The position numbers were made by a program, and so were the translations under genes. Shown piece by piece: positions 9,990 to 37,464 of a stretch of DNA of 63,626 nt (position 1 is the stretch's first letter; each line of letters starts with the position of its first letter). Below the pieces are notes generated by a model. That model saw only the letters and a program-made list of their open reading frames with translations. It had not been told where the DNA came from and ran no database searches. The stretch spans positions 1-63,626 of the forward strand of contig JAZQRR010000026.1 of assembly GCA_045629645.1 (NCBI GenBank), in the 5' to 3' direction. Source of the stretch: Candidatus Enterousia sp. (GTDB lineage: Bacteria; Pseudomonadota; Alphaproteobacteria; Rs-D84).

Positions 9990-12900
9990 TTACTGGGCTC
10001 CCCATCCTTCTTTTATTTTTTGCCATCCTACTGATTCTTCTGTTTCTATTTTAGGAACCATTGGAGTGCTTTGGTTGTTTTTGTTTGTGTCTTTTTTGAC
10101 TATATTTATCAGAGAATTTTGTAGAACAGGATCTAAGTTTTTGTTGTTTTTTATTGATTCTATACGACTTTGTTCCATTTCTTTTTCCATTTCAGCTCGA
10201 TGTTGGTCCATCTGTTGTTGTCTTCTTTCTTCTTGTTGTGTCTGGAATTCTTTTTCTGTGAGCCCTGCTTTTTTTAGAGCTTCTTTACGTTCTTTTTCTC
10301 GCTTTTTTCTAAGTTCCCTGTCTCTTTTTTCCTCTTCTTTTTCTTCTTGAATTCTTTCTTTTTCTAATGCTTTTTCAAGCTTTTTTTGATCTTTGTATTT
10401 TTCATAATCTGTTTTTTCACCTTGATTATTTGTTGTATTAAAGTTTGATTGGTTGTTGTTAATGGTGCCGCTGTTGTCGCCCATTTCTGTAATCTGGTTT
10501 GTAGATACCGCTGCGGACAGGCTTAGATTAAAGCCGTCGTTCTGTATGCTGGTAGAACTGGAATTGTTCTGATAGTTTGATTGCAGGTTGCTGCGACTGA
10601 CCTCGCCAAAGACCGCTTCGCCAGATGCAAAACTGATAATTTGTTCCGATACAACTGGTTCTGCGTATGAATTACAGAATTTTCCTTGGTATGTAGAAGA
10701 ATCGTTGCTGCCACCAAATCCAACACCCGCGCCGACGCTTGCACCGGCGCCCAGTGCACCAATTGAGCCACCTACATTAGCGTTTAAACTAGCATTCCAA
10801 CTGCTGGAATTGGTGTTGTATATTCCTTCGTATCCGGTACATGCGTATAAACGGCGTGTCAGACGGCATACCTGTGGGCCGGGTTCGTACATTGATGTAA
10901 TTTCTTCGGCTGCAATTTGCAGGCCATCAATTTCAATCTTGCGTGTTTCAGTTGCGTTTGTTTGTGCGGCGGCAATTGTATCTTTGTTTGATGTGCCAGA
11001 TAATATTATATATCCATCGCCAGATTCTTTTATACCGTATTTAGATTCTTCTAAATTTGTCATCATATTTTCTTGGTCTGTGTCGCCACTGGTCAAAGAT
11101 AAATCAGCCATTGCGTTACACATCAATATGTTACGCAATTCTTGTGAGTGGGAATTTGCCTGTGATATCTCACGTGCGTATTCGCGTTGATAATTATCCT
11201 TGGCCGTGGTTAATAATGAATCAAACATTGTTTCGGCGTATGAATTTATCAGGTTTGGAAAACGCGCCGCGGTGCGTGTGGATGTCTTACGTGTGGCACC
11301 ACTGATTTGTGACATATCACGACCGGTTAAACACATGTGCACCGTTGGATCACTGGCCAATAATGATATTTTGCGATTGAATTCTGCCCCCAGTTCAGCA
11401 ATTACATTTCCGCTGCCAGAAGTTGTTTCTGCGCCCGTGTAAGCGATATTGTATGGTTTTTTTTCTAACGAGAAGTCTAGCCAATCATTTTTTTTGTTTT
11501 CAGGGTGTTTTAATGTTATTTGACCAAAATTTATTAAACCGCTGATCTTATAATCGTTGTTATCAAGTTGTTCAGTTTGTATACTGCCCGAGCCAATCAG
11601 TGTGTTTGCGTCTGCGAATGAACAATAAGATGTACTGCCGCAGATTTCAATCATTTTTGTGTTTATTGCATTTTCGCATGCCTGTAACATATTGTTGTCA
11701 ATGTTTAAAAAGATCCCCTGGGCAACGTTGGCAATATAATTCCTTTTTTCATCTGCGTTTGTGCCATATTCACTGGAATCACATGCAACCAATTTGTCCA
11801 ATGGGCACATGTCCATAATGGCATTCAAATCCAGACCGATACACTGGGTATAATCTGTGCCACAACGGTCGTTTGATTGCAGGCAATCACGTACAGATGT
11901 TGTACATGCGTCAACACGAATCGCCGCCAAACGCGCCGTTATGTGTTTCCAAATATCTGATTTTAATGCCGCGTTCTTTTTTGTTGTGTCAATACCGCAT
12001 GCATTCAATGGAACCTTGCACACGTTTAACATTGTTTCAGGGCGACTTAGACACATGTCGTATGAGCCATCCGGATCATTTGGATCCATATTGTCTTTAC
12101 ATGCCTTTTGAAAACATTCAGAAACATTGTTTAAACAATTCTGGCGTGTATTATTTTCTGAAATTAATTCGGCAGATTTAATTTGTGGTGCAGATTCTTG
12201 TAAAAAAGTATCCCATACCTGATCCGCGACGGCAACACATTGTTTTGTTACCGTTTCACATAATGGTTTTTTTGCCATTAATGTATCGTATGTTGATGCA
12301 GCGATTTCAATATCGGATACAGCGCCCTTGATTTTTATTTTCTTGTTGGCACCAGCACCCTTTTTAGAATTGGTAGAATCCATTGCGAATATATTTGTAC
12401 ATCCAGAAAAGTCTTCGCCACAGCCACCTGTTGTTTGCATACATTCACGGAACCGAATCGTACACTGGGACAGACCATATTTGTTTGCCGCCTGGTGCGC
12501 TTCCAGTGCCGCTTCGCGTAGGGCGCGTTCAGCCGCAGCCAATTTTTCAGACGATTCGTTACGTTTCTTTTTTATTGTGTTTTCATATGCCATACAATCT
12601 GACTTTACACGTTGAGAATACAGTAACTTGATTGTCTTTAAACTGGCCGAACATTCTGGGATTTGTTCAGAACATACCTGATCCGCCATTTTGTACAGGG
12701 CATCCCCTTCGGTCGGGGTGGCGTCCGATTGGCTTGCAGATTTGAATACATCAATTTCTTCAAAGGCGTTGGTGTCAAATGCGGAAAAGTCCAGTTTGCG
12801 TTCGCCAGATTTATTTGCACTGTCGCGGTTGCGGATGGAATTTGCAACGTTGTTGGCCATGGAAATTACAGCGTCGGCATCAGATCCCATTTCAATTTGT

Positions 12901-13436
12901 TCAATGCCAACAGTTGCCATTTGGTAAGATTGTTCGTCTATTTTTTCAATCTCTGCCAAGGCTTTGTTTAATTCCATGCTTTTATCGCTGCATACGCAAC
13001 GTCCACCGTTGGCGTTATCCATCATACAAAAAGAATCCATACAACCGTTATACTTTGTTGTACATTCTTCATCTGCAATAACGTTTTGTGTTGCGGTTGT
13101 AACCTTGGTTCCAGTACTGATAACCTTTTGCGTTGTTCCAGCGCGTGCAGCGACCGTTTTTGGTGCAGATGTCGCATTTTGTTTTGGTGTCGCACTGCGC
13201 GCCGCAGTCGCACGTGGGGCAGTTGTGTTGCCGGATACAGGTGCGCGTGCCGCACCACGCGATGAGGCCGCACGTGCAGATGTTGCCGCAGGGGCCGATT
13301 GTGTATTCTGGGCAGGTTGGGCGGTGGTGCCAGACACCGGTGCGCGTGCAGAACGACGTGCAGTCGCAGCAATAGATGCGTCGCTGTGTGTCAAACCAAT
13401 AATAACTAGTAATGATAATAATGCACGATTAATCAT
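9990..13436 (-). CDS. Giant Cys-rich secreted protein, family member A (about 1148 aa), with a C-terminal Glu/Lys/Arg-rich coiled-coil tail
   Basis: GGAAGGGA RBS followed by an ATG at 13436. Signal peptide MINRALLSLLVIIGLTHSDASIAA, Ala/Arg/Ser/Thr low-complexity region, then the CMDSFC core motifs. Confidence 0.8.
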   Translation of the reverse strand: MINRALLSLLVIIGLTHSDASIAATARRSARAPVSGTTAQPAQNTQSAPAATSARAASSRGAARAPVSGNTTAPRATAARSATPKQNATSAPKTVAARAGTTQKVISTGTKVTTATQNVIADEECTTKYNGCMDSFCMMDNANGGRCVCSDKSMELNKALAEIEKIDEQSYQMATVGIEQIEMGSDADAVISMANNVANSIRNRDSANKSGERKLDFSAFDTNAFEEIDVFKSASQSDATPTEGDALYKMADQVCSEQIPECSASLKTIKLLYSQRVKSDCMAYENTIKKKRNESSEKLAAAERALREAALEAHQAANKYGLSQCTIRFRECMQTTGGCGEDFSGCTNIFAMDSTNSKKGAGANKKIKIKGAVSDIEIAASTYDTLMAKKPLCETVTKQCVAVADQVWDTFLQESAPQIKSAELISENNTRQNCLNNVSECFQKACKDNMDPNDPDGSYDMCLSRPETMLNVCKVPLNACGIDTTKKNAALKSDIWKHITARLAAIRVDACTTSVRDCLQSNDRCGTDYTQCIGLDLNAIMDMCPLDKLVACDSSEYGTNADEKRNYIANVAQGIFLNIDNNMLQACENAINTKMIEICGSTSYCSFADANTLIGSGSIQTEQLDNNDYKISGLINFGQITLKHPENKKNDWLDFSLEKKPYNIAYTGAETTSGSGNVIAELGAEFNRKISLLASDPTVHMCLTGRDMSQISGATRKTSTRTAARFPNLINSYAETMFDSLLTTAKDNYQREYAREISQANSHSQELRNILMCNAMADLSLTSGDTDQENMMTNLEESKYGIKESGDGYIILSGTSNKDTIAAAQTNATETRKIEIDGLQIAAEEITSMYEPGPQVCRLTRRLYACTGYEGIYNTNSSSWNASLNANVGGSIGALGAGASVGAGVGFGGSNDSSTYQGKFCNSYAEPVVSEQIISFASGEAVFGEVSRSNLQSNYQNNSSSTSIQNDGFNLSLSAAVSTNQITEMGDNSGTINNNQSNFNTTNNQGEKTDYEKYKDQKKLEKALEKERIQEEKEEEKRDRELRKKREKERKEALKKAGLTEKEFQTQQEERRQQQMDQHRAEMEKEMEQSRIESIKNNKNLDPVLQNSLINIVKKDTNKNNQSTPMVPKIETEESVGWQKIKEGWGAQ

Positions 13437-13581
13437 CAAATTCCCTTCCAATTTAATTGATTTTATCATATTAATGGTTTTATTAAAAGTATAATTTTTT
13501 TATTTTTGTTATTTTTTATCTAAATATGGCTTTAAAAAAGTATAGATTTGTGATAAAATTAATCAAATTGGAAAGAGAGTA

Positions 13582-16491
13582 ATGAAAAAAATACTTGCTG
13601 TTTTGGCGATGTTTTCTTGGGTTGCAGGTGCTGCGGATGCGGCGACGGCGCGTCGTTCTGCGCGCACACCGGCGTCTCAGACAGCGCCAACGGCAAATGC
13701 TGCACGCAGTGCAACCAATGCCCGTGCGGCGCGTGCGCCGGCAACTGCGAATGCAGGGGTGGGGGTGCGTGCGACTGCGGCACGCAGTGCGACACCAAAA
13801 CAAAATGCGACATCTGCACCAAAAACGGTTGCTGCACGCGCCGGAACAACGCAAAAGGTTATCAGTACTGGAACCAAGGTTGCAACCGCAACGCAAAATG
13901 TGGTGGTGGGCGAAGAGTGTGCTGCGAAATTTAACGGTTGTATGGATTCTTTTTGTATGCTGGATAATGAAAATGGCGGCAGATGTATTTGCAGTAATAA
14001 ACATACGACTTTTGATTCTATTCTGGAAGAGATAGAGGCACTGGATCAGCGTTCTTATGAAATGGTAACGCTGGGGATAGAACAGGTTGAAATGGGTGCT
14101 AATGCCGATAAGGCTATTGATATGGCGGATGCTGTTACGGCAAAGCTGGATGCCAAGAAAAAACGTGATAGAATTGATTTGTCTATGTGGTCCAGTAAAG
14201 ATGATGAAGTAGATAATATAAGTATGTCTGAATTGGATGGTAAAAAAGGTGATGAATTATATGCCGCAGTTGCAAATATCTGTCGTGCCAGAATACCAGA
14301 ATGTGCGTCCGATTTACAAATGCTGCAAATGATGTATTCCAGACAAATTCAATCGGATTGTGCAGCGTATGAAAACAGTTTGAAACAAAAAAAGACCAAG
14401 GCAATTGAAAATCTGGATACTGCAGAAAGAAGTTTGCGTAAGGCGGCCTTGGAACAATATGAGTCTGCAAATAAATATGATTTGGGGCAATGTACCGTTC
14501 GATTCAAGGAATGTATGCAAACAACAGCAGGGTGCGGTGATGACTTTTCTGGGTGCGCACAGGTTGTTGCAATGGAATCTACAAATGTAAAAACAAAAAA
14601 TGATAAACAGAAAACTTATATTATCCAAGGGGCGTTGTCGGGGGTTCAGATTTCTGCGTCAACATATGATACATTGATGGCAAAAAAGACAATTTGCGAA
14701 AATGTTACAAAACAATGTGTCGATGTCGCAGATCAGGTATTTGATGCGTTTTTGCGCGATGTGGCGCCCCAGGTCAAGGCAGCGGAATTAATCGCAGAAG
14801 ATAAAATGCGTCAAAATTGTGTTGTAAATATTTCTGATTGTTTCCAGCAGGCGTGTAAAGATAATATTGATCCAAATGATCCAGATGGATCGTATGATCT
14901 GTGTTTAACGCGGCCAGAGGCAATGTTGAACCTGTGTAAGGTTCCATTAAACGCCTGTGGTATTAATACAATGCAAGAATCTACGGCACAGCAGTCGTCA
15001 ATATGGAACTATGTTCTGGACAGGTTGGCGTCAATGCGTGTTGATGCGTGCACAACGCAAATCAAAGATTGCTTGCGCGATAATGATAGATGTGGTTCTG
15101 ATTATACACAATGTATGGGGCTGGATATAGATTCTGTGGTTAATATGTGTCCATTAGATAAATTGGTCGCTTGTAATTCCAGTGCCTATGGTGTAGATGT
15201 GGCGCAAAAAGTAAATTATATTTATTCTGTTGCCCAAGGAATTTTGTTGGGAATTGATAATACTTTTTATGCACAATGTGAAGCCGCAGTAAAAAACAAA
15301 ATGGTCGAAATGTGCGGCAGCATTTATAATTGTAATGCAGATCAAAATGAATATCTGGGTAAAAATAGTTTGCGTGTTCAACAACAGACTTCGGGTGATT
15401 GGTTAATTGATGGAACAGTTATGTTTGGCAGTATTAATATGTCGCATCCAACAGATAATGGTGTATTAGATGGTGGTTATACAGTTACTTATAATGTAAA
15501 TAGTGCTGATGGCAAGGGGCAAGATGTTTACGAACGTATTAATCAAACCGTTGTCGCAGATATTCAAAGCGAATTGAACAGAAAAATGTCTATATTGATG
15601 ACAGATCCGACAATTAATATGTGTATAAATGGACGTGATATGGGACAAATTACACGTGGTGCAGGACGTGATACGGCCAGATTCCCGAATCTGTTGGTGC
15701 CGTATGCGAATATTATGTTTGATTCACTGATTGATACGGCGATGATTAATTATAATTTGGAATATGCAAATGCGTTTTCCAAGGCAAATTCATTGTCAGA
15801 GCAATATAAGAACACATTGTTCTGTAACGCAATGGTCAAGAAAAATCAAAGTCCAGTGGAAATGGCACAAAGTCAGACAGGTGTCAAGGAATATACGGAT
15901 TATTCAGTGTTAATTGCGGGAACATTTGATAAAAATATGCTGGATGCAATTAACGAAGGGGCCGAGGCTGAAAATATCGTTTATGTTGATGAAGTTGTTG
16001 CAAATGAAAAACATAAAACAGAAATTGCGCGTGAAAGAATGTCTGCGGTTTATGAACCGGGGCCCAAGGTTTGTCGTATAACCAAGACAATTTATCCATG
16101 TGTTGGATATGATTCTGCGTTTAATTCAGAATCTACATCATGGAATGCAGCGGCGCATGTAACGGTTGCAGGTACGGGTGGTGGATTTGAGGCAGGCGGT
16201 TCGGAATCTTCGACCAAGTACGTTGGTAAATATTGTTCGCAATATGCAGAGCCGTTGATTACGGAACAGATAATTAATTTTGCAGATGAAAATGTTATTG
16301 CGGGTAATATAACACGCAGTAATGTTACGTCAATGGTTGTTAATAATAATCAGGTTACAAATTCTACGTCTACTTCTGTTGGGGTATCGTTAAGTGCGGA
16401 TGTAAGTTCGGATCAAATTACAAATATTGAAAATAATAATGGTACTATTAACAATAATGGTAGAGGAACGGTTAATACAAATAAGAAATAG
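13582..16491 (+). CDS. Giant Cys-rich secreted protein, family member B (969 aa)
   Basis: Signal peptide MKKILAVLAMFSWVAGAADA. Colinear with member A throughout and divergently transcribed from it. Confidence 0.85.
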   Translation: MKKILAVLAMFSWVAGAADAATARRSARTPASQTAPTANAARSATNARAARAPATANAGVGVRATAARSATPKQNATSAPKTVAARAGTTQKVISTGTKVATATQNVVVGEECAAKFNGCMDSFCMLDNENGGRCICSNKHTTFDSILEEIEALDQRSYEMVTLGIEQVEMGANADKAIDMADAVTAKLDAKKKRDRIDLSMWSSKDDEVDNISMSELDGKKGDELYAAVANICRARIPECASDLQMLQMMYSRQIQSDCAAYENSLKQKKTKAIENLDTAERSLRKAALEQYESANKYDLGQCTVRFKECMQTTAGCGDDFSGCAQVVAMESTNVKTKNDKQKTYIIQGALSGVQISASTYDTLMAKKTICENVTKQCVDVADQVFDAFLRDVAPQVKAAELIAEDKMRQNCVVNISDCFQQACKDNIDPNDPDGSYDLCLTRPEAMLNLCKVPLNACGINTMQESTAQQSSIWNYVLDRLASMRVDACTTQIKDCLRDNDRCGSDYTQCMGLDIDSVVNMCPLDKLVACNSSAYGVDVAQKVNYIYSVAQGILLGIDNTFYAQCEAAVKNKMVEMCGSIYNCNADQNEYLGKNSLRVQQQTSGDWLIDGTVMFGSINMSHPTDNGVLDGGYTVTYNVNSADGKGQDVYERINQTVVADIQSELNRKMSILMTDPTINMCINGRDMGQITRGAGRDTARFPNLLVPYANIMFDSLIDTAMINYNLEYANAFSKANSLSEQYKNTLFCNAMVKKNQSPVEMAQSQTGVKEYTDYSVLIAGTFDKNMLDAINEGAEAENIVYVDEVVANEKHKTEIARERMSAVYEPGPKVCRITKTIYPCVGYDSAFNSESTSWNAAAHVTVAGTGGGFEAGGSESSTKYVGKYCSQYAEPLITEQIINFADENVIAGNITRSNVTSMVVNNNQVTNSTSTSVGVSLSADVSSDQITNIENNNGTINNNGRGTVNTNKK

Positions 16492-16493
16492 TA

Positions 16494-16527
16494 AAAATGT
16501 CCGTCATTGACGGATGTTTTTTTATAA
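16494..16527 (+). terminator. Intrinsic terminator after member B
   Basis: TCCGTCATTGACGGA hairpin followed by a T-run. Confidence 0.55.
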
Positions 16528-16533
16528 TTTTAC

Positions 16534-16562
16534 TTGATTTTCTGGTTTGTGTGCGGTATTAT
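16534..16562 (+). promoter_or_regulatory. Candidate sigma70-type promoter for rpsB-tsf
   Basis: TTGATT, 17-nt spacer, TATTAT, about 115 nt upstream of the rpsB ATG. Confidence 0.35.
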
Positions 16563-16676: not shown

Positions 16677-17528
16677 ATGGCATTGCCAACATTTACAATG
16701 AAACAGTTGATGGAAGCTGGTGTGCATTTTGATCACCATACACGTCGCTGGAATCCATTGATGACACCATATGTTTATGGCGTTAAAGATAAAATTCACA
16801 TCATTAACTTGAACAAAACAGCACCGTTGTTGCATCGTTCTTTGGTTGCATTGGAAGCAATCGCGGCCGCAGGTGGCAAGGTTCTGTTCGTTGCAACAAA
16901 ACATCAGGCCAAAGATATTGTTAAAGATGCAGCTGAACGTTGTGGTCAGTTTTATGTTAACAATCGTTGGTTGGGTGGTATGTTGACTAACTGGACTACG
17001 GTTTCTCAGTCAATTCGTCGCTTAAAGAAAATGGAAGCGGATATTGCGAATGCTGACAAATTGGGCTTGACCAAAAAAGAAGTCGGCGTTATGACCAAAG
17101 AAGTTGAAAAATTACGTGGTATCTTTGGTGGTATCTTGGAAATGCACGGTACCCCACAGGCGATGGTTGTTATTGATGTGCCACGTGAAATGAATGCCGT
17201 ACGTGAAGCCAAAAATTTGGATATACCAACAATCGCTATTTGTGATACAAATGCGAATCCAGAAATGGTTGATTATCCTGTCCCAGGTAATGATGACGCA
17301 GCACGCGCAACACAGTTGTATTGTGATTTGTTCGTTGATGCAATCTTGTCTGGTATCGAAAAACGTTTGGGCGGCGCAGCAGGTAAAAAAGTTGAATCTG
17401 ATATGCGCGCAGATGCAGCAGATGAATTAGAAGATGATATCAAAGAAAAAGAAGCAAAAATCAAATCTAAGACATCCGAAGCACGTGCAGAACGTCGCAG
17501 CAAATTGGCAGACAAAGCAGATAAATAA
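16677..17528 (+). CDS. rpsB: 30S ribosomal protein S2
   Basis: LMEAGVHFDHHTRRWNPLM... is S2-like. Has an acidic/basic C-terminal extension. Confidence 0.95.
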   Translation: MALPTFTMKQLMEAGVHFDHHTRRWNPLMTPYVYGVKDKIHIINLNKTAPLLHRSLVALEAIAAAGGKVLFVATKHQAKDIVKDAAERCGQFYVNNRWLGGMLTNWTTVSQSIRRLKKMEADIANADKLGLTKKEVGVMTKEVEKLRGIFGGILEMHGTPQAMVVIDVPREMNAVREAKNLDIPTIAICDTNANPEMVDYPVPGNDDAARATQLYCDLFVDAILSGIEKRLGGAAGKKVESDMRADAADELEDDIKEKEAKIKSKTSEARAERRSKLADKADK

Positions 17529-17594
17529 TATCTGTGGTCTTAATCGCGCAGGGGTAACCCTGCGCAAATAAATTATTAACGGGAGAAAATTACA

Positions 17595-18464
17595 ATGGCA
17601 GAAATTACAGCAAAATTAATTCAAGAATTGCGCGAAAAAACATCCGCAGGTATGATGGATTGTAAAAAAGCATTGATTGAAAATGACGGTGATATCCAAG
17701 CTGCTGCAGATTGGTTGCGTCAAAAGGGTATTGTCAAGGCGGCTTCAAAAGCAGGTCGTGTTGCAGCGTCTGGTTTGGTTACTGTTGTTAAAACAGATGG
17801 TATGGGTTGCGTTGTTGAATTAAATGCAGAAACAGACTTTGTTGCAAAAAATGAAAAATTCCAGAAATTGGTTGCAGATGTTGCTGCCAAGGCTGTTGAA
17901 TTGGATGGAAATTTTGATGCAACAATGGATGCTGTGAAAGATGATATCGCTGCAACAATTGCAACAATTGGTGAAAATATGAATTTGCGTCGTATCGCAA
18001 AAGTAAATGGTGATAAAATCTTTACTTATATTCATAATGCGTTGGTTCCAGGTATGGGACAAATTGGTGTTGCTGTTGCAATCAATGGTGACGATGCAAA
18101 AATCGATGAAATTGGTTCCAAGGTTGCAATGCATATTGCAGCAAATAAACCTGAATTTATGACAATTGCTGATGTTGATCCTGTTGCAGTTGAACGTGAA
18201 AAGAAAGTGTTTATTGAATCAGGTGCAACAGCTGGTAAACCAGAAAACATCGTTGAAAAGATGGTAGAAGGCCGTATTAAAAAATATTATGGCGAATCTG
18301 TATTAGAAGAACAGCCATTTGTTATGGATCCTTCTAAGACAGTAAAAGATGTTGTTGCAGAAGCTGGTGGTAAATTGGCTGGTTTTGCATGCTTTGTGTT
18401 GGGCGAAGGTATTGAAAAACGTGAAGATAACTTGGCAGACGAAGTTGCAAAAATGTTAGCGTAA
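17595..18464 (+). CDS. tsf: Elongation factor Ts
   Basis: AKLIQELREKTSAGMMDCKKAL is the EF-Ts signature. Confidence 0.95.
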   Translation: MAEITAKLIQELREKTSAGMMDCKKALIENDGDIQAAADWLRQKGIVKAASKAGRVAASGLVTVVKTDGMGCVVELNAETDFVAKNEKFQKLVADVAAKAVELDGNFDATMDAVKDDIAATIATIGENMNLRRIAKVNGDKIFTYIHNALVPGMGQIGVAVAINGDDAKIDEIGSKVAMHIAANKPEFMTIADVDPVAVEREKKVFIESGATAGKPENIVEKMVEGRIKKYYGESVLEEQPFVMDPSKTVKDVVAEAGGKLAGFACFVLGEGIEKREDNLADEVAKMLA

Positions 18465-24352: not shown

Positions 24353-24871
24353 ATGAAAAAAAATGATTTGAAAAAATACGCATTCATTGTTGGTTCTGGT
24401 TTTGTAACATTGTTTGGGACTACGGGATGTACAGAAAATAATACTTATAACAATGACTGTTGTTCTGATACATTACGTTATGTTATTGTTAAACCGGGGC
24501 AAAAATATGTTGTCCCAGGTAATGTTGTTAATTTGGGCGAAGGTGCGGTAAATAATGGTAATATCATTATTATAAATGACAATAGTGTGAATTATAATGA
24601 TGTTGCACCAGTAAAACCAGCGCCAGTAAAACCAAAACCAGCGCCGGTAAAACCAAAGCCTGCACCAGTGCAACCAGTACGACCTGTAAAACCGGTACAA
24701 CCAGTGCAACCAGTACAACCGGTGCAACCAGTGCAACCAGTACGACCTGTAAAACCAGTGCAACCAGTGCAACCAGTGCAGCCAGTACAACCAGTACAGC
24801 CAGTACAGCCGGTACAAAGGGCAGAAGGCTATGCCAGGGTAGTTATCGAATACAATCAATGTATCCGATAA
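24353..24871 (+). CDS. Probable lipoprotein with a PVKP/PVQP tandem-repeat tract
   Basis: Signal [26 protein letters not shown] with a Cys at the end of the hydrophobic segment. The C-terminal half is (P-V-[KQR]) repeats. Confidence 0.7.
24607..24818 (+). repeat. In-frame 9-bp tandem repeats (CCAGTGCAA / CCAGTACAA / CCGGTACAA variants) with a higher-order ~63-81 bp unit
   Basis: Direct reading of 24601-24820. The higher-order unit starts with CCAGTACGACCTGTAAAACC at 24674 and again at 24737. Confidence 0.8.
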
Positions 24872-28669: not shown

Positions 28670-28696
28670 AAAAACCGGCGTTGCGCCGGTTTTTTT
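28668..28696. terminator. Bidirectional terminator
   Basis: AAAAAACCGGCGTTGCGCCGGTTTTTTT. Confidence 0.65.
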
Positions 28697-29405
28697 AATT
28701 GGCAAAATATTTTGATTTTTGTTGTTGTGAAATAGAATACATTTTTTCAAATAATTTTTCTGCATCAGATTGGCTGGCCACGGTTGTGTCAGAGTTTGGA
28801 TTGTATTCCGCGCCATTTAAAATGATTAAGCGGTTTGGCAATATTTCACTGTTGCCACATTCAATATAATAACGTGCAGAATCATAATATTTTCCGTAAC
28901 ACTTACCGTTCAGTACAGCTGCGTAACCATCGTTTGCCAACTGTTTACATGTTGGTTGATTTTTATATACTATTTCACCATTTGATAATACTTCATCAGC
29001 GTTATCAAGAATCCCGTTACACCATATGTTTTTGTATTCGCCATTTACCATCGCCATTGTTCCGTCCTTGTTTAATTTTCTGCGACCGAAACATTCGTTG
29101 GCATTATCTAACAGGTCTGTGTCAAAATCTGAACTGATACCTTGTTTTCTTTCTATGGCTTTCTGAGATATTAATTTTGCAGTTTCACCAACGGGGTTTA
29201 ATGCGTTGGGGCAAATATATTTCATTCCACGACAATTACTGTCCGTGTCCCAGATTTGGAAATCAATTCCAGTGCCACCGGATAAATAACATTTTGTTGT
29301 GTCCAATTTGCATACGGTTGGTTGTTCCCACCATTGATTGGCGTTTGCATTGGTAATTGATGCGCATATAATAAAAATTGTCGAATATAAAAGTGTGTTT
29401 TTCAT
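28695..29405 (-). CDS. Secreted Cys-containing protein (236 aa), apparently co-transcribed downstream of family member C
   Basis: Signal peptide MKNTLLYSTIFIICASITNANA. A 13-nt gap separates it from the upstream gene. Confidence 0.6.
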   Translation of the reverse strand: MKNTLLYSTIFIICASITNANANQWWEQPTVCKLDTTKCYLSGGTGIDFQIWDTDSNCRGMKYICPNALNPVGETAKLISQKAIERKQGISSDFDTDLLDNANECFGRRKLNKDGTMAMVNGEYKNIWCNGILDNADEVLSNGEIVYKNQPTCKQLANDGYAAVLNGKCYGKYYDSARYYIECGNSEILPNRLIILNGAEYNPNSDTTVASQSDAEKLFEKMYSISQQQKSKYFAN

Positions 29406-29418
29406 TATTTTTTTCCTC

Positions 29419-32199
29419 TTATTTCCATGTTGCTTCTAGTGTTACCTGTCCCCCATCTATATCGGTTAGATTTGTTACTGTGGCACCGTCTTGATATATG
29501 ATGTTGTTTAGTTTCCAACCATTGAATTTGCCACCACTTATACCGGTGCTTCTGTGTATGGTTATGCTAAAATTATTGTTACGTAGTGTGCACTGTTTTC
29601 CGTAAGTGCATACAGTTGGTTCCATTGATCCTGTTGGTTTTTCGCATGTATGTTCGCCGCAGTGCTTACTAGAATTTTGATATATGATAGTATATGTTTG
29701 TTCGTTTGCCTGGCCTTTACAGTATCCCCATTTTGTGTTTGCAGATGTTTTCTCGTAAAATAATTTATATAATGAATCGCCATTAATATCGTGAAGTCCG
29801 TCAGATATGGAATGTTCGGGGTTTGTGCCGATGTCTTTCCATTCGGTGTCAACCCACAGACCGCCAAGACGTTCACATTCTGCGGATAATTGTTTTGACA
29901 TATCTGCGCGTATTTGATCCATCATTTTGTTTACGTCTTGTAATACACTTTCTGGTAATATGGGGTTTTCAGTTGTTGCTTCGGATGGTCTGATGCACAT
30001 TTGTTTCGCGTATTTGACCATCAGTTGATATAAACTGCCAGGGTAATCTCCACATTTAGCATATTTTGTCAGGCTATCAGCTTTTATAGCCAATTCTGGA
30101 GCATCTTTTCCTCCTACGCATACATATCCGCCTGGACAGCCTCTGCATATTGTGCCGTTGGATTCTGTGTATTTATAATAAGCTTCAAATATGCCGTCGG
30201 CGGGGTTAATTTCTCCTTTATATTCATTTGTTCCCGGATGTATATTTGCCAGATAAAAACCTGTATTACAACTGGTGTATCGTTTTTGGTATCCACATGA
30301 ATAGTGGCTTGGGGTTTTTTTTACGGGACTTCTTGGTATTTCGGTTGTTATTGTTATGTTTGGAACACTTGTTACGTCTTGGCATGTTATGTTGTTATTT
30401 ACAGCTACGTTCATGTATTTCTGTTCGCCAGGGGCGTATGTACGACAACTGTAGGGGTATGCGTGTGTAGAATCGTTGCTGGGAACAAAACATTGTTTTT
30501 TTGCAAATGCCTGTAATGCGTCAAAACATTGCTGTGCAATTTTTTCATTTGTTATTTCGTGCATTGTGTTAACCAATTTTTCCATGCCTGTGCTGCCACC
30601 ACCGTACAAATTGCTGCATGCGTTTAATTTTTCCTGACACATTTGTTCGGACAATTCCAGACGCATACCGTATGTTGTTTCGTCGGCATTTTTGCTGAAA
30701 TCCTTTAACGATTTGTTTTGTTCGTCATAACAAGTGTTCACAACGTTCAGGCATTCGTCTTTGACATTACGGATTCTGTCATGTTGTCCCTGATATATTT
30801 CTGTAAGTGCCTGACGTATGAATTCGTCCCATACTGTGTCTGATACGTCGCGACAAGTGTCTAAACTGGTAGATGCGAATTTACGCATGTTATCCAATTT
30901 ACTTATGGTCATACGATTGGTCGGGTTTTTTAATATGTCACCAGATAAAGATAACATATTTTCCAACTGAAAGAAATCTGCTGTGTATATAGGTTCGCCA
31001 GTTGTATAGTTCAGATATTTTCCTGTGATATCCAGACAGTGTACATAATCTGTGCCGCATGCAACATCAGATGTAACGTCTTGTCTGACGCGGGCAATGC
31101 ATTCATTGATTGTCAAAGAATTATGGGCGTCGTAATTGTTCAGGCGTGCCAGATTCATATCACGTTCTGTGGAACGTATGTCAGAATTTGCAGCAGTTAA
31201 TTTTTTGTCCAGACTGTTTTGTAATAAAGAACAATCGTTTTCAATGTACATTCCGTATGCAGAAACAACCATTGTACGTGTTGCATCGGATTGACATACG
31301 TCTTTGACCATTTCGGAACATTGGGCGTGAACTGCGTTGTATAACGCTTCGCCGGTCAGGTTTGCAATATTGTTTCCGCCGGCTAAATCAACGGTTTCCC
31401 ATATCGCGCTGATATCACCTGCGATATCTAATGTGCCTTGGTTGGACAGCGAATTACTTTTTGTTTTTGATAAAACTTCGCTGATGCCGGCTAATTGTTT
31501 GGCACTGTTGGATGTGTCTTTTGCGTTTGCCTGTGCGATTTCGCCAGCACTGGCAGACAGCATCGCTGTTACTTCGGCACTGGTCTTGTCAATGACAGAC
31601 AGATTTAAGTCTTTGAAATCTTGTAATTGAGTTGTTGCCTGACCAAGTGCGTTTTCACGTGTTATTATGTCATTTAAACGCGAAGAACATACGCATCTGC
31701 GGTATGTGTCGTCGTTTGATGCACAAAATTGATCCATACATGTAAAATATGCGTCGCGACATGCGGTGTATCCGGTGCCGAGTGCACTGGATGCGGTTGG
31801 CGATAATGCAGCGCGTGCGATTGTCGAAGCAATATTTGCGGTGTTTTTTGCACTGCGTGCGGATGATGTTTTTTTTGTGGCGCTGCGTGCGGTGGTTGTT
31901 GCAGTTGTGTTTTTTGCGCTGCGTGCGGTTGAATTTTGCATCGCACTGCGTGCAGCTGTTGTTTGGATGGCGGTGCTGCGTGCGCTGGATGTATTCTTGA
32001 TGCTTGTGCTGCGTGCTTTGTTTTCAGTACTGTCTGCACGGGCTGTGGAAACACGCTTGGTTTCAGTTGAACGTGTTACGATTTTTTTTACGTTGTCTGT
32101 CGTTGCGCTGCGTGCGACAGAATTGCTGTCACGAACAGCAGCGTTGGCACCGCCAACGCATAATGCAATGGATATAATGTATAATAGAATCCTTGTCAT
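29419..32199 (-). CDS. Giant Cys-rich secreted protein, family member C (about 926 aa), with a C-terminal TNFR/ephrin-receptor-like Cys repeat
   Basis: The ATG at 32199 gives MTRILLYIISIALCVGGANA. Degenerate ARSA repeats follow, then ACRDAYFTCMDQFCASNDDTYRRCVCS. Confidence 0.8.
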   Translation of the reverse strand: MTRILLYIISIALCVGGANAAVRDSNSVARSATTDNVKKIVTRSTETKRVSTARADSTENKARSTSIKNTSSARSTAIQTTAARSAMQNSTARSAKNTTATTTARSATKKTSSARSAKNTANIASTIARAALSPTASSALGTGYTACRDAYFTCMDQFCASNDDTYRRCVCSSRLNDIITRENALGQATTQLQDFKDLNLSVIDKTSAEVTAMLSASAGEIAQANAKDTSNSAKQLAGISEVLSKTKSNSLSNQGTLDIAGDISAIWETVDLAGGNNIANLTGEALYNAVHAQCSEMVKDVCQSDATRTMVVSAYGMYIENDCSLLQNSLDKKLTAANSDIRSTERDMNLARLNNYDAHNSLTINECIARVRQDVTSDVACGTDYVHCLDITGKYLNYTTGEPIYTADFFQLENMLSLSGDILKNPTNRMTISKLDNMRKFASTSLDTCRDVSDTVWDEFIRQALTEIYQGQHDRIRNVKDECLNVVNTCYDEQNKSLKDFSKNADETTYGMRLELSEQMCQEKLNACSNLYGGGSTGMEKLVNTMHEITNEKIAQQCFDALQAFAKKQCFVPSNDSTHAYPYSCRTYAPGEQKYMNVAVNNNITCQDVTSVPNITITTEIPRSPVKKTPSHYSCGYQKRYTSCNTGFYLANIHPGTNEYKGEINPADGIFEAYYKYTESNGTICRGCPGGYVCVGGKDAPELAIKADSLTKYAKCGDYPGSLYQLMVKYAKQMCIRPSEATTENPILPESVLQDVNKMMDQIRADMSKQLSAECERLGGLWVDTEWKDIGTNPEHSISDGLHDINGDSLYKLFYEKTSANTKWGYCKGQANEQTYTIIYQNSSKHCGEHTCEKPTGSMEPTVCTYGKQCTLRNNNFSITIHRSTGISGGKFNGWKLNNIIYQDGATVTNLTDIDGGQVTLEATWK

Positions 32200-32268
32200 T
32201 CCGAATATATAAATATATTCTATCAAAATAAGAAGGTTCAGACAAGGGAAATGAATAGTTTTTTGTAA

Positions 32269-32292
32269 TAAAAAAACCGCAGTCGCGGTTCT
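32269..32292 (-). terminator. infA terminator
   Basis: Reads AACCGCGACTGCGGTT followed by a T-run on the minus strand. Confidence 0.55.
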
Positions 32293-32300
32293 TTATTTTC

Positions 32301-32543
32301 TTATGCGTTTTCTGTGCCAGTCTTGTTGCGTTCAACAAACGTTATGCGACCCTTGTCCAAATCATAAGGGGTCATTTCAACGCGTACGCGTTCGCCAACA
32401 TTTACCCAAATGCGTGCCTTGCGCATTTTGCCGCAAACAGTCGCCAAAATCTCGTGCCCGTTTTCCAGTTTAACACGGAACATTGTGTTTGGCAGTTTGT
32501 CTTCGACTGTGCCACTAAAAACAATTACATCGTCTTTTGCCAT
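32301..32543 (-). CDS. infA: Translation initiation factor IF-1
   Basis: [42 protein letters not shown]... is IF-1-like. Confidence 0.95.
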
Positions 32544-32625
32544 AAATTTTTGTCCTTTGGCTGGTTGTTTTTACTGGTGTTATGATATTGTTTTTGTGTA
32601 TAAAAATCAAGTTGTTTTTATATGC

Positions 32626-32654
32626 TTGCACGGGGCAAGATTATCTGATAAAAT
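32626..32654 (+). promoter_or_regulatory. Candidate promoter for family member D
   Basis: TTGCAC, 17-nt spacer, TAAAAT. Confidence 0.3.
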
Positions 32655-32694
32655 ATCTTCATAGTATGCTATATCATTATGTAGGAAGGGCCCA

Positions 32695-34854
32695 ATGAAA
32701 CTAGGAATTTTAGTGACTTTGTTGTCGTTGATACCGTGTGTGTCTGGCGCGGCTGCGCGCGATGATTCTGCACGTGTCGGTGTAAAACGTGCGTCTGCCA
32801 GTGGGGTGCGTGCGCCGTCGATGACTGCGTTGAAAACGACTGCGATGCTTGGTGCGGGGGCGGCGGTAGTGTCTGATGCGGCGAAGACATCGGTTGATAC
32901 TGCTGGGGATGAATCTGCGACAACGACATCGGGTGGCGATTGTCGTGATGCGTATCGTGCCTGTATGGATGAATTTTGTCTGTTGGATGAGTCGGAAGGT
33001 TATCGTTGCGCCTGTTCTAATAATATAAATGCGTCAAAACCGTTGATTTTAGAAATTCAAAATATCCAAGCCGAAGCAGATAAGTTATATACCGAGGGTG
33101 TAGAACGTGAAAAATTGGGTGCCACGGCGGATTTGGTTTTTGGTAAAGAGAAAGAAACAAATGAACTTGCGGAAAGTATAAGAAAATCGGGGGATATTTA
33201 TAAGGATTGGCTGGAATCGGATTTAGATTCGGACAGTGATATTGGCGATGCTTTGTATGAAATGGCGTCTGGTTATTGTGCAGCGGAATTAGAAAAATGC
33301 GGTGATGCCAAGGCAGAAATGGAACAAGCGTTATATACACGTCAAATTGTCTCGGACTGTAAGGCTTTTAATTCTTATTTGGCGGATCAGAAGATAAATG
33401 CCCAGGCAAATAAACGCACGGCCGAGGCGGCAGTGCGTCAAGCACGTTTGTCTATGTTGGATACAACAAATAAGTATAATACAGGTGAGTGTTTGTTGGC
33501 TTATCGTGGTTGTATCGCGGACAAAGGTGGTTGCGGAACAAATTTTGAAAATTGTTTAAATGCTGATTTGTTGGAACGACGTGCACGTGCGTGCGACAAT
33601 GTCTTGGATCAATGTATGTCTGTGCGAAAAGATGTAGCTGCCTTATGGGAAGAAGAGGCACAAGATATCTTGGTTGAGGCAAATAAGTACGCGGATAAGT
33701 ATTATCGTCAGACGTGCTTGGCACAGATTCAACTTTGTTTAGAAGATGGATGTTCGACAACAACAGATTCTACTTGTTTAAGTGATATAAAGGTAGCGGC
33801 TGGTGTTTGTCCTATTATTGAAGATTGTGATGCTAAAATCCCAGGGTTAAAGGATGTTGTGAAAGACAAGTTAGGTTACTTGCGTTTACAATTCTGTCAA
33901 AATGATGTTGATGCTTGTTTGCGTGATAAATGTGGGGCAAACTTTACGGCGCCAGAATGCTTGGGTAAATCAACAAAAACTATTATGGGTATGTGCCCAC
34001 AGAACTTGTTCCCAACATGTAAAAATGAAACTGCGGACACTTTTACTGCGATTACAAGTTCTGCATTGTTGCAGATGGATTATAAAATGGTGCAGGGATG
34101 TATTAATCATTTCAGTAATTTGTTGGGACAAACATGTGGAACGGATATGAATTGTTTGCCATCTGATGAAACAGTTGCTGCACTGACCTATGAACAGTTA
34201 GTTGGTTCTGATAATAAGTTGAATTCTGAAAAAATTACGGAATTGCGTACGTCTGTTCGTAAAAATGCAAAAACAGCGGTTGATAACTTCTTTATAAAAT
34301 TTGAAAATGAAACCACTGTTTTAGCATGTAAAAGTGCGATGACGGATGTTATTGATGCAAAACAAAAAGGCAACTCGATTGGAGATAGTGTATTTTCAAC
34401 TGCAAAAATTATTGCTGAAATCAGTGCAGAAAATCGTGCATTGCGTGCATTGGAAACAAAAATTGCCGATATCTCACGCAAGGCAGATATCGAAGCAGCG
34501 CGTGATTTGTGTTTGGAAACGTACAAGGTTGAAACGCCTGATACCAGTGCGGATAATAAGAATTATAGTTATATAAAAAGCGTTTCGTTTGAACCTTCGT
34601 TAAGAAATTGTCATATTTGCCGTATTCAACAGGTTTGTGAGACGGGTGGTGAAACACAGGCGTCTGCGGGTCTGAAATCTGCCGCGGGTGGTTTGGCGGC
34701 TGGCGCGTCAATGGGTACAATGATCAGCCCAGGGTGGGGCACTGCAATCGGCGGTGCAATCGGTGCAATTGGTGCAGGATTGGCAGGTGGCTTGGGCGCG
34801 GGCGAAAAAGAATTTTGCCAGCAGATTGAAAGCTGTGAAGATGTTAATATGTAA
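32695..34854 (+). CDS. Cys-rich secreted protein, family member D (719 aa), with a C-terminal glycine zipper and a CEDVNM tail
   Basis: Signal peptide MKLGILVTLLSLIPCVSGAAA. Motifs DCRDAYRACMDEFCLLDESEGYRCACS and GGLAAGASMGTMISPGWGTAIGGAIGAIGAGLAGGLGAG. Confidence 0.8.
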   Translation: MKLGILVTLLSLIPCVSGAAARDDSARVGVKRASASGVRAPSMTALKTTAMLGAGAAVVSDAAKTSVDTAGDESATTTSGGDCRDAYRACMDEFCLLDESEGYRCACSNNINASKPLILEIQNIQAEADKLYTEGVEREKLGATADLVFGKEKETNELAESIRKSGDIYKDWLESDLDSDSDIGDALYEMASGYCAAELEKCGDAKAEMEQALYTRQIVSDCKAFNSYLADQKINAQANKRTAEAAVRQARLSMLDTTNKYNTGECLLAYRGCIADKGGCGTNFENCLNADLLERRARACDNVLDQCMSVRKDVAALWEEEAQDILVEANKYADKYYRQTCLAQIQLCLEDGCSTTTDSTCLSDIKVAAGVCPIIEDCDAKIPGLKDVVKDKLGYLRLQFCQNDVDACLRDKCGANFTAPECLGKSTKTIMGMCPQNLFPTCKNETADTFTAITSSALLQMDYKMVQGCINHFSNLLGQTCGTDMNCLPSDETVAALTYEQLVGSDNKLNSEKITELRTSVRKNAKTAVDNFFIKFENETTVLACKSAMTDVIDAKQKGNSIGDSVFSTAKIIAEISAENRALRALETKIADISRKADIEAARDLCLETYKVETPDTSADNKNYSYIKSVSFEPSLRNCHICRIQQVCETGGETQASAGLKSAAGGLAAGASMGTMISPGWGTAIGGAIGAIGAGLAGGLGAGEKEFCQQIESCEDVNM

Positions 34855-34881
34855 TCTTTGTTAATACGGAGAGGGAACCTG

Positions 34882-37464
34882 ATGTCTTGGAAGAAAATAT
34901 CTTTGTTGGGATTGATTGCTGTTGGGGTGCTGGCAATGCCGGACGTTTTTGCCGCAACTGCCAAAGTTACAAAACAGTCCGCGATTCAGGCTGGGACCAA
35001 GGTGCGTACCAAGGTTGATGTTACTGGTTTGTATGATCAGGAATGTTACGATGCCTTTTATGGGTGTATGGATCAATTTTGTATTTCCGATAATGAAAAC
35101 GGTGGCAGTTGCGCGTGCAGTGATCTTAACGCTGAATATGAAACACAACTGGCAGATATTAAAAAAATGTTGGAACAGGCCGAATATGTCAGCACTGTAG
35201 AGGTTGAAAAAGTTCAGGCTGGTGCGGATGCGGATATTATATTCAAGGGAACCAGACAATATGATTCGGATGGAAATCTGATAGCTGTTGATGAATTAAC
35301 CGAAGAAGAAAAGAAACAGCAAAAACGACAAAGTTTGATGGCGTTGTTTGAAAAAAATTACGACGAAGATGAAGATGTCTTTGCAGATGAAAGCGAAGAA
35401 GATATTTTCTCGAAAACGGGGGCGGCGTTGCACAAGGCTGCGGAAAATCTGTGTGTGCAGCAGGTGCCAGAAAAGTGCGAAAAAGATATAACTTTCTTGC
35501 GTCAGGTTTATGGACGTCAAATTACGTCTGATTGCAAAGGTTTTGAAAATAGTTTGGCAACACAGCGTAGGGATGCAGAAAAACAGTTGGCCAGTGCCGA
35601 AGCAGCAGTACGTTCCGCATTAAAAGATTCTTTGGCAGAATCGAACAAGTATGATTTGGGTACTTGTATGGTTGAATTTAAAAAATGTATGTTGACAGAT
35701 GATGCGTGTGGTAAAGATTGGACCAAGTGCGTGTCAACAATCGCAGATGTTAATATGCAGGGTATAAAAGAAAATGACGTTTTTACAAGTGGAAATATGT
35801 CAAAATCTGCACAGAAAGCATATACAGGCAGTACTTATGGTATTGCAGCATCTACGATGGAAGGTTTGGATTCAAAACGTTTAATTTGTGAACGTGTCTT
35901 GGATAAGTGCGTGGCGGTACGTAACCAAGTTTGGCCGGCTTTCTTGCGTGAGGCGGCGCCTACGATTAAGTTGGCAGAGTTGACGGCAGAATCAAAAATG
36001 CGTCAGTCTTGTTTGACCGATATTTCCGATTGTATCCAGACAGCTTGTAAAGATGATATCGAAGGTAAAGGGGTCGCATCAATGGATGCCTGTTTGGCTC
36101 GTCCAGATATGGCACGCAGTTTTTGCAAGGTTGAAATTGAAAGATGTGAGAAAATGGAACCTCAAATCTGGGCTTATGTTACAGATAAGTTAAAGGCAAT
36201 GCGTGTCGATGTTTGTACGCAAGAAGTCAAAGATTGTTTTACAGCAGATACACGTTGTGGTGCAAATTTCCAGAACTGTATCGGTATGGATTATGACTAT
36301 ATCCATGATATGTGCCCAATAGATAGTTTGGTCGTATGTAAACAAGATAATCCAAACTTCTCGATGGATGATTTGGATTCAATGTTGATGGGATTGTATT
36401 TGAATATTGATAATTCTGCATTGGATCAGTGTCAGGCATTGGTTGATGCAAAAATGACAGAAGTTTGTGGCAGCACAACAGATTGTAATAAATTTGCCGC
36501 AGATGAAATTATCGGTACAGGCAGTTTGCGTTCGCAAAAAGATGGAACAGTATATCGTGTAACAGGTATGATTTCATTTGGTTCAATCAAAATGGGCGAT
36601 GCCTTTGGTTCGACTGATAATGGCAAACTGTTAAAAGCAGGACAAATTGGTGTTGAAGATTATTTGGCGCATGTACGTGAAGTTAATGAGAAAGTACCAG
36701 ATAAAGATGCGATTATTTCTTCCATAGAAGCAGAATTGAATAATATCGCAGGTACAATTAATCGTACTATCCAGATGATAGAACAGGACCCAGAAATTCA
36801 GTTCTGTGTAAATGGGCGTGATTTGTCTCAAATTACAGGAGAATCCAAGAAAACAACAGCGCGTTTTCCGAATTTGTTAAATTCAATCAAAATGCAAATC
36901 GCAACTGCTGCGTTGCGTCAGGCCCAAGATAACTATAACAAAAAGTTCACAGATGAAGTGGCGCAGGCAACCAAGGATGCGTCTGCGGATATTGCGCAGT
37001 ATATGTGTCAAATGTTGCCAACAAATCATGGTGCTGCAATTGGTGGGGTTAGCGAAGAAAAGACATCATTGGCACCACCGTATGCCATTAGCTATGAAGT
37101 TGGTTCTGGCTTGGAAAAGGCGTTGTTGGCCCAAGGTGGACGTGGCAGTAGCGCAACCAGTGGAACTGCGGTTATGGAATCTGGTCGTGAAACAGGTGAA
37201 GCAGAAAATATTATCAGTTCTATTTTGACACTGGGGTGGAGTACAATGACAGGTGATAAAGTTAAACAAGAAATCCCAGGTGGAACACGTGAAATGTGGT
37301 CTGTATTTAACCGTGAAACCAGAAATTGTCATTTCTGTACTTCTACGGTAACCAAGACTTGCAAGACTGTTCATAAAAAAGGATTCTTGGGAATTGGTGC
37401 AACCGATGAAATGGATTGTCAGGAATCACAGCCGGTTGAAAAGTGTGAAGATATACCAATGTAA
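34882..37464 (+). CDS. Cys-rich secreted protein, family member E (about 860 aa), with a CEDIPM tail
   Basis: GGAGAGGGA RBS followed by an ATG at 34882. Signal MSWKKISLLGLIAVGVLAMPDVFA, then ECYDAFYGCMDQFCISDNENGGSCACS. Confidence 0.8.
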   Translation: MSWKKISLLGLIAVGVLAMPDVFAATAKVTKQSAIQAGTKVRTKVDVTGLYDQECYDAFYGCMDQFCISDNENGGSCACSDLNAEYETQLADIKKMLEQAEYVSTVEVEKVQAGADADIIFKGTRQYDSDGNLIAVDELTEEEKKQQKRQSLMALFEKNYDEDEDVFADESEEDIFSKTGAALHKAAENLCVQQVPEKCEKDITFLRQVYGRQITSDCKGFENSLATQRRDAEKQLASAEAAVRSALKDSLAESNKYDLGTCMVEFKKCMLTDDACGKDWTKCVSTIADVNMQGIKENDVFTSGNMSKSAQKAYTGSTYGIAASTMEGLDSKRLICERVLDKCVAVRNQVWPAFLREAAPTIKLAELTAESKMRQSCLTDISDCIQTACKDDIEGKGVASMDACLARPDMARSFCKVEIERCEKMEPQIWAYVTDKLKAMRVDVCTQEVKDCFTADTRCGANFQNCIGMDYDYIHDMCPIDSLVVCKQDNPNFSMDDLDSMLMGLYLNIDNSALDQCQALVDAKMTEVCGSTTDCNKFAADEIIGTGSLRSQKDGTVYRVTGMISFGSIKMGDAFGSTDNGKLLKAGQIGVEDYLAHVREVNEKVPDKDAIISSIEAELNNIAGTINRTIQMIEQDPEIQFCVNGRDLSQITGESKKTTARFPNLLNSIKMQIATAALRQAQDNYNKKFTDEVAQATKDASADIAQYMCQMLPTNHGAAIGGVSEEKTSLAPPYAISYEVGSGLEKALLAQGGRGSSATSGTAVMESGRETGEAENIISSILTLGWSTMTGDKVKQEIPGGTREMWSVFNRETRNCHFCTSTVTKTCKTVHKKGFLGIGATDEMDCQESQPVEKCEDIPM

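Follow-up and report, generated by a model that had tools for sequence, protein, structure and literature searches.

We report that a 63,626-nucleotide stretch of DNA (contig JAZQRR010000026.1 of assembly GCA_045629645.1, referred to as the window) from a Candidatus Enterousia species, a gut alphaproteobacterium of the Rs-D84 lineage having a genome of less than 1 Mb, encodes five large cysteine-rich proteins, A to E, that are predicted to be exported and that appear to constitute a new protein family. Comparative analysis of these proteins and their relatives provides some insight into what they might do. Our favoured reading, which is tentative and falls somewhat short of being probable, is that A to E are lineage-specific extracytoplasmic paralogs that form a disulfide-braced hetero-oligomer in the envelope or on the cell surface. 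Enterousia is placed in the order Rs-D84 (GTDB), the members of which have genomes below 1 Mb, do not respire, lack amino-acid, nucleotide and lipid biosynthesis as well as standard transporters, are widespread in the guts of humans, livestock, birds and termites, and have been proposed to depend on a partner (PMC12306168, 2025).

The preliminary description of the window had placed A to E at given coordinates and strands and had ascribed to them one common architecture, and both are borne out: all five open reading frames (ORFs) are intact, they encode proteins of 719-1148 aa (Table 1), and B and E are each followed by a strong hairpin resembling a terminator. According to all-against-all BLASTP, identity is 49.5% between A and B and 34-35% for A/E and B/E, D is 25-27% identical to A, B and E (E-value about 1e-45), and C is 23-25% identical to A, B, D and E (E-values between 1e-13 and 1e-24). 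Comparison of the ortholog alignments using hhalign gave probabilities of 100% for E-D, 99.5% for E-C and 98.6% for C-D, and by these sequence comparisons A to E are true paralogs. The five genes cover 13.9 kb, corresponding to 22% of the window, and not the approximately 20 kb first suggested; about 19 kb is reached by counting in F, G, H and I, orphan Cys-rich ORFs of the same region, for a total of nine orphan Cys-rich proteins with predicted export.

Relatives were scanned for in one genome per GTDB species, where at least 566 stretches encode homologs, and the best 80 of these were used as related loci. All 80 originate from metagenome-assembled genomes (MAGs) of uncultured Alphaproteobacteria of animal guts, many of them named Candidatus Enterousia, which agrees with the earlier assignment of the window to a host-associated alphaproteobacterium; one of them, OZ007020.1, is closed, with a chromosome of 958,618 bp. 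The family gave 1274-1384 matches in a collection clustered at 90%, and an exhaustive HMMER search returned 941 clusters at 50% identity, 451 of these at E≤1e-30. All named homologs are annotated as 'hypothetical protein', belong to Alphaproteobacteria MAGs and are without a Pfam domain, and tblastn gave no match among 72,556 plasmid and 50,697 phage records. Homologs thus seem to be confined to one uncultured order, with none detectable outside the lineage.

The gene order, as determined by tblastn of the window proteins against the 80 loci, is I(-) C(-) | D(+) E(+) almost everywhere. Specifically, among the 55 loci having at least 9 kb upstream of E, the arrangement C(-)D(+)E(+) is present in all 55 and I(-) also in 48, in each case as 1:1 orthologs, and the gap between D and E has a median of 23 nt. 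Each genome carries four to five fixed paralogs. In the window infA is located between C and D, and the flanking rplQ, rpsB-tsf, infA and ccrM genes that had been named before were confirmed. The dN/dS values, computed against the close relative L081, are 0.052 for E, 0.112 for D, 0.126 for C and 0.197 for I (five housekeeping genes, 0.028-0.138), and on this measure selection on the family genes is purifying. Ortholog identity across the lineage is 44-68%, to be compared with 87-94% for ccrM, nrdR, rplQ and rpsB; the family is hence constrained yet faster-evolving than the housekeeping genes, which is typical of exposed proteins. Moreover, paralogs that are only 23-35% identical are ancient, and ancient paralogs each having a 1:1 ortholog in a fixed block suggest distinct non-redundant subunits and not interchangeable variants. 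Of the notion of a multigene family, the paralogy is therefore real; a lineage-specific expansion is not supported, since the C|D-E (+I) block is fixed with 1:1 orthologs.

These data also bear on whether A to E might be a contingency or antigenic-variation family, or decaying paralogs, which we find scarcely credible and, with respect to C, D and E, largely refuted. For C, D and E alike, exactly one ortholog occupies the corresponding position in 55/55 loci, the divergence of the paralogs is old, the ORFs are intact with dN/dS of 0.05-0.13, and neither tandem nor phase-variable repeats were found in or near the A-E genes. What could be said for variation comes from A and B: the A/B-type is the most diversified subfamily among the representatives, and the two genes share an inverted repeat of 234 nt with 85% identity (12981-13214 / 13768-14001) that spans the pre-core motif and motif 1, is far more similar than A and B are overall, and suggests local gene conversion. 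In addition, a 23-nt inverted repeat (91%; 13446-13468 / 13551-13573) mirrors the 5' leaders of A and B, and the repeats suggest that the pair arose by inverted duplication and later underwent gene conversion, or else that a regulatory site is shared. That the genes are not decaying pseudogenes, which would have counted against the earlier interpretation, is supported by the intact ORFs and by purifying selection; for C, D and E these largely refute decay. A recent origin by horizontal transfer or from a mobile element was likewise rejected, the GC content at third codon positions (GC3) and the codon adaptation index (CAI) being typical of the window and plasmid or phage relatives being absent from the records searched.

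The second line of evidence concerns the Cys residues. Each of A to E has 34-37 Cys, i.e. a content of 3-5%, and of the 40 invariant columns in the A-E alignment 20 are Cys. The preliminary description had listed four ordered Cys motifs, and every string quoted for motifs 1 to 3 was found in the sequences; the spacing given for motif 4 (x10-11) is wrong and should be C-x6-C-x7-W-x2-F-L. Two copies of motif 3 (C-x6-C-x6-CGxDFxxC) are present within each of A, B and E. In A, B, D and E, 8-11 of the about 33-36 gaps between consecutive Cys are of six residues (approximately one in shuffled sequences), and the observed number of C-x6-C was attained in 0/2000 shuffles. Among 149 representatives, pairs of Cys columns are lost together: columns 440/456 in 16 sequences, 326/387 in 11 and 428/474 in six, all with no discordant sequence, and 512/538 in six sequences with one discordant. 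This loss in pairs suggests that the conserved Cys form structural disulfides; the predicted ones are, in A numbering, C446-C462, C332-C393, C434-C480 and C518-C544. In the structural model of E (see below) the C-x6-C pairs fall inside single helices, which would put the Cys on one face, placed to staple neighbouring helices.

A gene encoding a membrane-anchored DsbA-like protein (PF01323, E-value 5.5e-20) with the active site CP[YF]C is present in related loci, and in 23 of the 80 it lies 3-10 kb from E, including the closed 958-kb genome L058. Having putative disulfide Cys, and with an oxidase encoded in the lineage, A to E would by this indirect route belong among the DsbA-oxidised proteins. 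We consider it highly improbable that the Cys are not structural and instead bind metals or cofactors or are redox-active, e.g. in metal storage, electron transfer or thiol buffering. The high Cys content and the C-H-[FI]-C motif seen in the C-terminal regions of D and E would be in keeping with such a function, but the Cys columns are lost pairwise, the number of Cys in the mature protein is even in A, B, D and E, the i/i+7 helix spacing dominates and not CxxC or CxxCH, and metalloprotein families gave no match.

With respect to known families, the earlier statement that the core matches no known domain holds for Pfam-A, NCBIfam, PADLOC, PDB profile and Foldseek PDB/BFVD searches, all of which were negative. 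A-E and F-I gave nothing better than E 0.005 against Pfam-A 2025, NCBIfam 20.0 and PADLOC 2.0, all far below the cut-offs; 54 diverse homologs revealed no recurring Pfam domain; and three profiles had no match among the PDB sequences, with nothing at E<0.3 for A2 and A3 (hmmsearch). Using Pfam, Sel1 (PF08238) was found in none of 63 proteins scanned and there was no tandem repeat periodicity, Chlam_OMP3 and Chlam_OMP6 had no match in A-E or in the 54 representatives, and A-E lacked the autotransporter beta-domain and PMP repeats as well as the peptidoglycan-binding domains OmpA, LysM and SPOR. The scan did detect both type V features in the ORF at 53514-56687, which indicates that the method works on this genome. 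Two resemblances were considered and rejected. Glycine-zipper families (PF13488, PF13441, PF13436, PF05433) were searched using the segments of D, H, F and A alone, with Gly-zipper_YMGG as the best match at E 0.78 (one of the 54 representatives has a weak Gly-zipper_Omp match, E 5e-4); and a Listeria-Bacteroides repeat (Flg_new, PF09479), seen by eye in the C-terminal extension of C, had no match at E≤1 in the extension or in five ortholog tails.

An AlphaFold2 model of E, based on an alignment of 81 sequences, has a mean pLDDT of 71.3; residues 53-711 form mainly long helices, of which some extend over 47-58 residues, and a beta-rich part is predicted for residues 737-859. Foldseek searches with this model (pTM 0.43) against PDB and BFVD gave 0 matches at E≤1e-3, with TM below 0.15; weak levivirus-coat and TNFR-like matches in the Foldseek searches with the E and ORF I models were dismissed as noise. 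Because the model is only moderately confident, the lack of a known fold is a soft negative, with which the result at the sequence level agrees. No published description of the family was found: the papers on Enterousia and Rs-D84 that were consulted mention only 'hypothetical membrane-bound proteins', and the pattern in a 2026 preprint on 'cysteine-rich repeats' (Cx6-9Cx5-7Cx8-11Cx7-8CC) is unrelated. Having no detectable outside homolog and no fold match, and being conserved as a gene block across the order, the family would be new, orphan families being common in MAGs.

Each of A to E has a single N-terminal hydrophobic segment followed by a small-x-small site, and only D has a further hydrophobic segment (aa 684-702). 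A signal-peptide heuristic (charge, hydrophobic core and small-x-small site) recognised 5/5 of A-E and 53/65, 56/75 and 70/81 of the C, D and E orthologs, respectively. In A, B and C the signal is followed by a low-complexity tract of strongly basic character (net charges in Table 1); the tract is near neutral in D and short in E, and the bodies are acidic (-22 to -42). Among 124 representatives the tract has a median charge of +8 and is net positive in 93%. The Gly-rich hydrophobic segment just ahead of the C-terminus of D is kept in 73/75 D orthologs, and almost all D and E orthologs across the lineage end with C-E-D-[IV]-x-M-COOH, a conservation of the last residues that suggests a recognition or sorting signal. 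C carries a Cys-containing C-terminal extension of 92 aa (29419-29694) that is absent from the 74%-identical L081 ortholog; C orthologs in general (754-1014 aa long) differ greatly in their C-terminal add-ons, among which a pattern F-x-G-[FWY]...L-x-P-x-W without a Pfam match recurs, and variable tails and C-terminal add-ons are also present in A/B.

In the mechanism that we propose, the A-E subunits would be exported by Sec and then oxidised by DsbA, and the non-redundant subunits would assemble into the disulfide-braced hetero-oligomer in the envelope or at the cell surface. At the N-termini of A, B and C, the strongly basic and disordered tails might bind a polyanionic surface, either the cell's own peptidoglycan or lipopolysaccharide or glycans of the partner or host, the Gly-rich segment of D might anchor the assembly in a membrane, and the disulfide-stapled acidic helical bodies might act as a protease-resistant coat or contact structure. 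Several observations weigh against this proposal. A Sec signal alone leads to the periplasm, the export and disulfide data reach no further, so that the earlier surface, adhesin or effector role stays a candidate one, and no outer-membrane route was identified for A-E; the putative complex is deduced solely from co-conservation; the Gly-rich segment has no Pfam glycine-zipper match (best E 0.78); codon usage shows no sign of very high expression; the 63.6-kb window itself has no DsbA gene; and the E model is of moderate confidence (pTM 0.43), its disulfide geometry being predicted. We also consider a more far-reaching variant, about which we are doubtful: C, D, E and I together with the A/B-type proteins might be subunits of a novel surface apparatus, an all-helical, disulfide-stapled hetero-oligomer with a new fold, anchored by D, tipped by the basic tails and used throughout this order of obligately partner-dependent gut bacteria to attach to a host or partner cell, perhaps drawing metabolites from it.

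A different reading, rather unlikely in our judgement, takes A to E as a strictly periplasmic scaffold or tether. Here the tails would bind peptidoglycan or inner-leaflet phospholipids and the disulfide-braced helical bodies would lend the envelope stiffness or spacing, a function comparable to that of the disulfide-crosslinked envelope of chlamydiae. Autotransporter, two-partner secretion (TPS), lipobox and beta-barrel features were not found in A-E, which have a Sec-type signal only, the lineage has a DsbA-type oxidase, the set is conserved in every genome examined, and E, a member with no basic tail, is highly conserved (dN/dS 0.05). However, orthologs that are 44-68% identical where housekeeping genes are at about 90%, and variable tails and add-ons in A/B and C, look exposed, and peptidoglycan-binding domains (OmpA, LysM, SPOR) are missing.

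Release from the cell is the premise of another alternative, in which A to E are secreted effectors or toxins, possibly released via a type IV system, that act on the membrane of a partner cell through the Gly-rich segment. Pertussis toxin provides an analogy, being exported by Sec and then released by a type IV system. Effectors tend to turn over and do not usually show such strict 1:1 orthology, fixed synteny and strong purifying selection; moreover, the hydrophobic segment is limited to D, and neither a domain nor a fold of a toxin, enzyme or pore-former was detected. These points make the alternative improbable in our view, even though a VirB11-like ATPase is encoded in the window, D has its Gly-rich hydrophobic segment, the conserved extreme C-terminus of D and E could serve as a recognition signal and the lineage has been proposed to be partner-dependent.

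Table 1. Positions of family members A to E, their sequence features and neighbouring Cys-rich ORFs (window coordinates unless another locus is named)
Feature	Positions	Strand	Remarks
A	9990-13436	-	1148 aa
A signal-peptide-like region	13368-13436	-	aa 1-23
A basic Ala/Arg/Ser/Thr tract	13071-13367	-	aa 24-122; net +10
A Cys core	11622-13064	-	aa 125-605
A motif 1 (C-x6-CMDxFC-x9-C-x-C)	12990-13064	-	
A four-Cys hairpin module (C-x6-C-x6-CGxDFxxC), first	12399-12464	-	
A four-Cys hairpin module, second	11841-11906		
A Lys/Glu-rich tail	9993-10421	-	aa 1006-1148
B	13582-16491	+	969 aa; divergently oriented to A
B signal-peptide-like region	13582-13641	+	
B basic tract	13642-13911	+	net +11
B Cys core	13918-15333	+	aa 113-584
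B motif 1	13918-13992		
B four-Cys hairpin modules	14491-14556 and 15049-15114		
Terminator-like hairpin 3' of B	16493-16521		
C	29419-32199	-	926 aa
C signal-peptide-like region	32140-32199	-	
C basic tract	31768-32139	-	ARS[AT] repeats; net +16
C Cys core	30268-31761	-	aa 147-644
C motif 1	31687-31761		
C four-Cys hairpin module	31036-31101		
D	32695-34854	+	719 aa
D signal-peptide-like region	32695-32754	+	
D Cys core	32941-34155	+	aa 83-487
D motif 1	32941-33015		
D four-Cys hairpin module	33490-33555		
D Gly-rich hydrophobic segment	34657-34806	+	aa 655-704
D C-terminal C-E-D-V-N-M	34834-34851	+	
E	34882-37464	+	860 aa; starts 27 nt past D
E signal-peptide-like region	34882-34953	+	
E conserved pre-core motif	34954-35037	+	
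E Cys core	35044-36486	+	aa 55-535
E motif 1	35044-35118		
E four-Cys hairpin modules	35665-35730 and 36214-36279		
E beta-rich C-terminal region	37090-37461	+	aa 737-860; ends C-E-D-I-P-M (37444-37461)
Terminator-like hairpin 3' of E	37472-37502		
ORF F	21871-23337	-	488 aa, 23 Cys; predicted exported
ORF F hairpin-like modules	22870-22929 and 22657-22716	-	
ORF G	23349-24215	-	288 aa, 21 Cys; predicted exported
ORF G module C-x6-C-x6-C-x6-C	23700-23765	-	
ORF H	19619-21691	+	27 Cys, orphan; predicted exported
ORF I	28695-29405	-	236 aa, 10 Cys; predicted exported; 13 nt downstream of C
DsbA-like gene, example	17008-17835		in related locus L033

The neighbouring Cys-rich ORFs are not demonstrably part of the family as defined by homology. 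F and G had been taken to carry subsets of the family motifs; a short module, C-x6-C-x4-6-C-x6-C / CGxDFxxC, is indeed shared, but hhalign revealed no global homology. At the profile level, F, G, H and I were rejected as homologs of A-E, the probability being at most 46% and the aligned stretch consisting of the signal peptide only. Significant C-x6-C enrichment was nevertheless detected in F, G and H, and Gly-rich hydrophobic stretches are present in F and H. The model of ORF I (pLDDT 83.8) is beta-rich with a C-terminal helix and gave no Foldseek match in PDB at E≤1e-3; though not demonstrably homologous, I is likely a functional partner. ORF J (24986-28669, +) encodes a protein of 1227 aa with predicted export and N-terminal ankyrin repeats (Pfam Ank_4); its residues 23-90 have DARPin-like PDB matches, the other approximately 1100 aa are unmatched, and the gene (dN/dS 0.11) adjoins I-C in many related loci and F-G in four. 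Between G and J a small ORF (24353-24871, +) with a lipoprotein-like N-terminus contains a run of 9-nt tandem repeats (24607-24817, about 17 PVQ/PVK units) that codes for a Pro-rich tract, and might possibly be a length-variable envelope spacer. In L081 a gene for an MscS-type mechanosensitive channel (12637-13482) is located between E and ccrM; it is absent from the corresponding part of the window (37465-37562) and recurs in 33 related loci.

Other genes in the window also relate to the envelope and the habitat. A Chlamydia-type PMP autotransporter with Chlam_PMP repeats and an autotransporter beta-domain is encoded at 53514-56687 (+), and a similar gene of about 1000 aa recurs in 24 related loci; a SurA-like chaperone is encoded as well. 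The ATPase encoded at 61076-62071 (-) has VirB11 (TIGR02788) as its best match (E 3.6e-43, under the equivalog cut-off), a hint that this reduced genome may encode a type IV secretion system, and ORFs 59577-60773 and 62114-62680 beside it are without a family match. A gene of the choloylglycine (bile-salt) hydrolase / penicillin V amidase family is present at 44775-45854 (-) and fits exposure to bile in the vertebrate gut.

Since the family is kept in a fixed gene block in every relative examined and has no detectable outside relative, A to E are among the most obvious candidates for the interface between these bacteria and their partner, and they occupy about 14 kb of a genome of less than 1 Mb. 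In practical terms they offer a handle on the partner, as targets for antibodies, as metaproteomic markers and as recombinant baits. For protein science, they likely represent a new disulfide-stapled helical fold with predicted Cys pairs that can be tested.

Finally, A to E can be compared with systems that are known. The GxxxG-rich hydrophobic stretches in D, F and H are reminiscent of glycine-zipper segments (Gly-zipper_Omp/YMGG, Rickettsia 17-kDa antigen), with the difference that the D segment is a small insert in a protein of 700 aa and not its defining domain. Trypanosome VSG and the DBL domains of Plasmodium are surface helical bundles with conserved disulfides, and A to E similarly would combine long helices with conserved predicted disulfides; however, there is no sequence or fold match to A-E, and VSG and DBL proteins constitute large variant families expressed singly, whereas here four to five fixed, non-redundant paralogs are present per genome. 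The chlamydial envelope proteins OmcA and OmcB offer a parallel by context: they are exported, rich in Cys and made by a host-dependent bacterium with a reduced genome, OmcB joins a basic glycosaminoglycan-binding motif at its N-terminus to a Cys-rich body, and the window, like Chlamydia, encodes a PMP autotransporter. In contrast, A-E have no Chlam_OMP domains and are predicted to be helical, while OmcB is beta-rich. Helicobacter Hcp and Legionella EnhC are Sec-exported, all-alpha proteins of Sel1-like repeats in which Cys pairs staple adjacent helices, EnhC being very large. A to E would share with them predicted export, a helical structure, regularly spaced Cys and an origin in host-associated Proteobacteria; they differ in having no Sel1, no Foldseek match to Hcp structures and no regular repeat architecture, and in that C-x6-C lies within long helices, compared to one disulfide per 36-aa repeat in Hcp/EnhC. 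By analogy, and although A to E are members of neither the Hcp/EnhC nor the chlamydial group, they may work most like disulfide-stapled helical exported proteins such as Hcp and EnhC.

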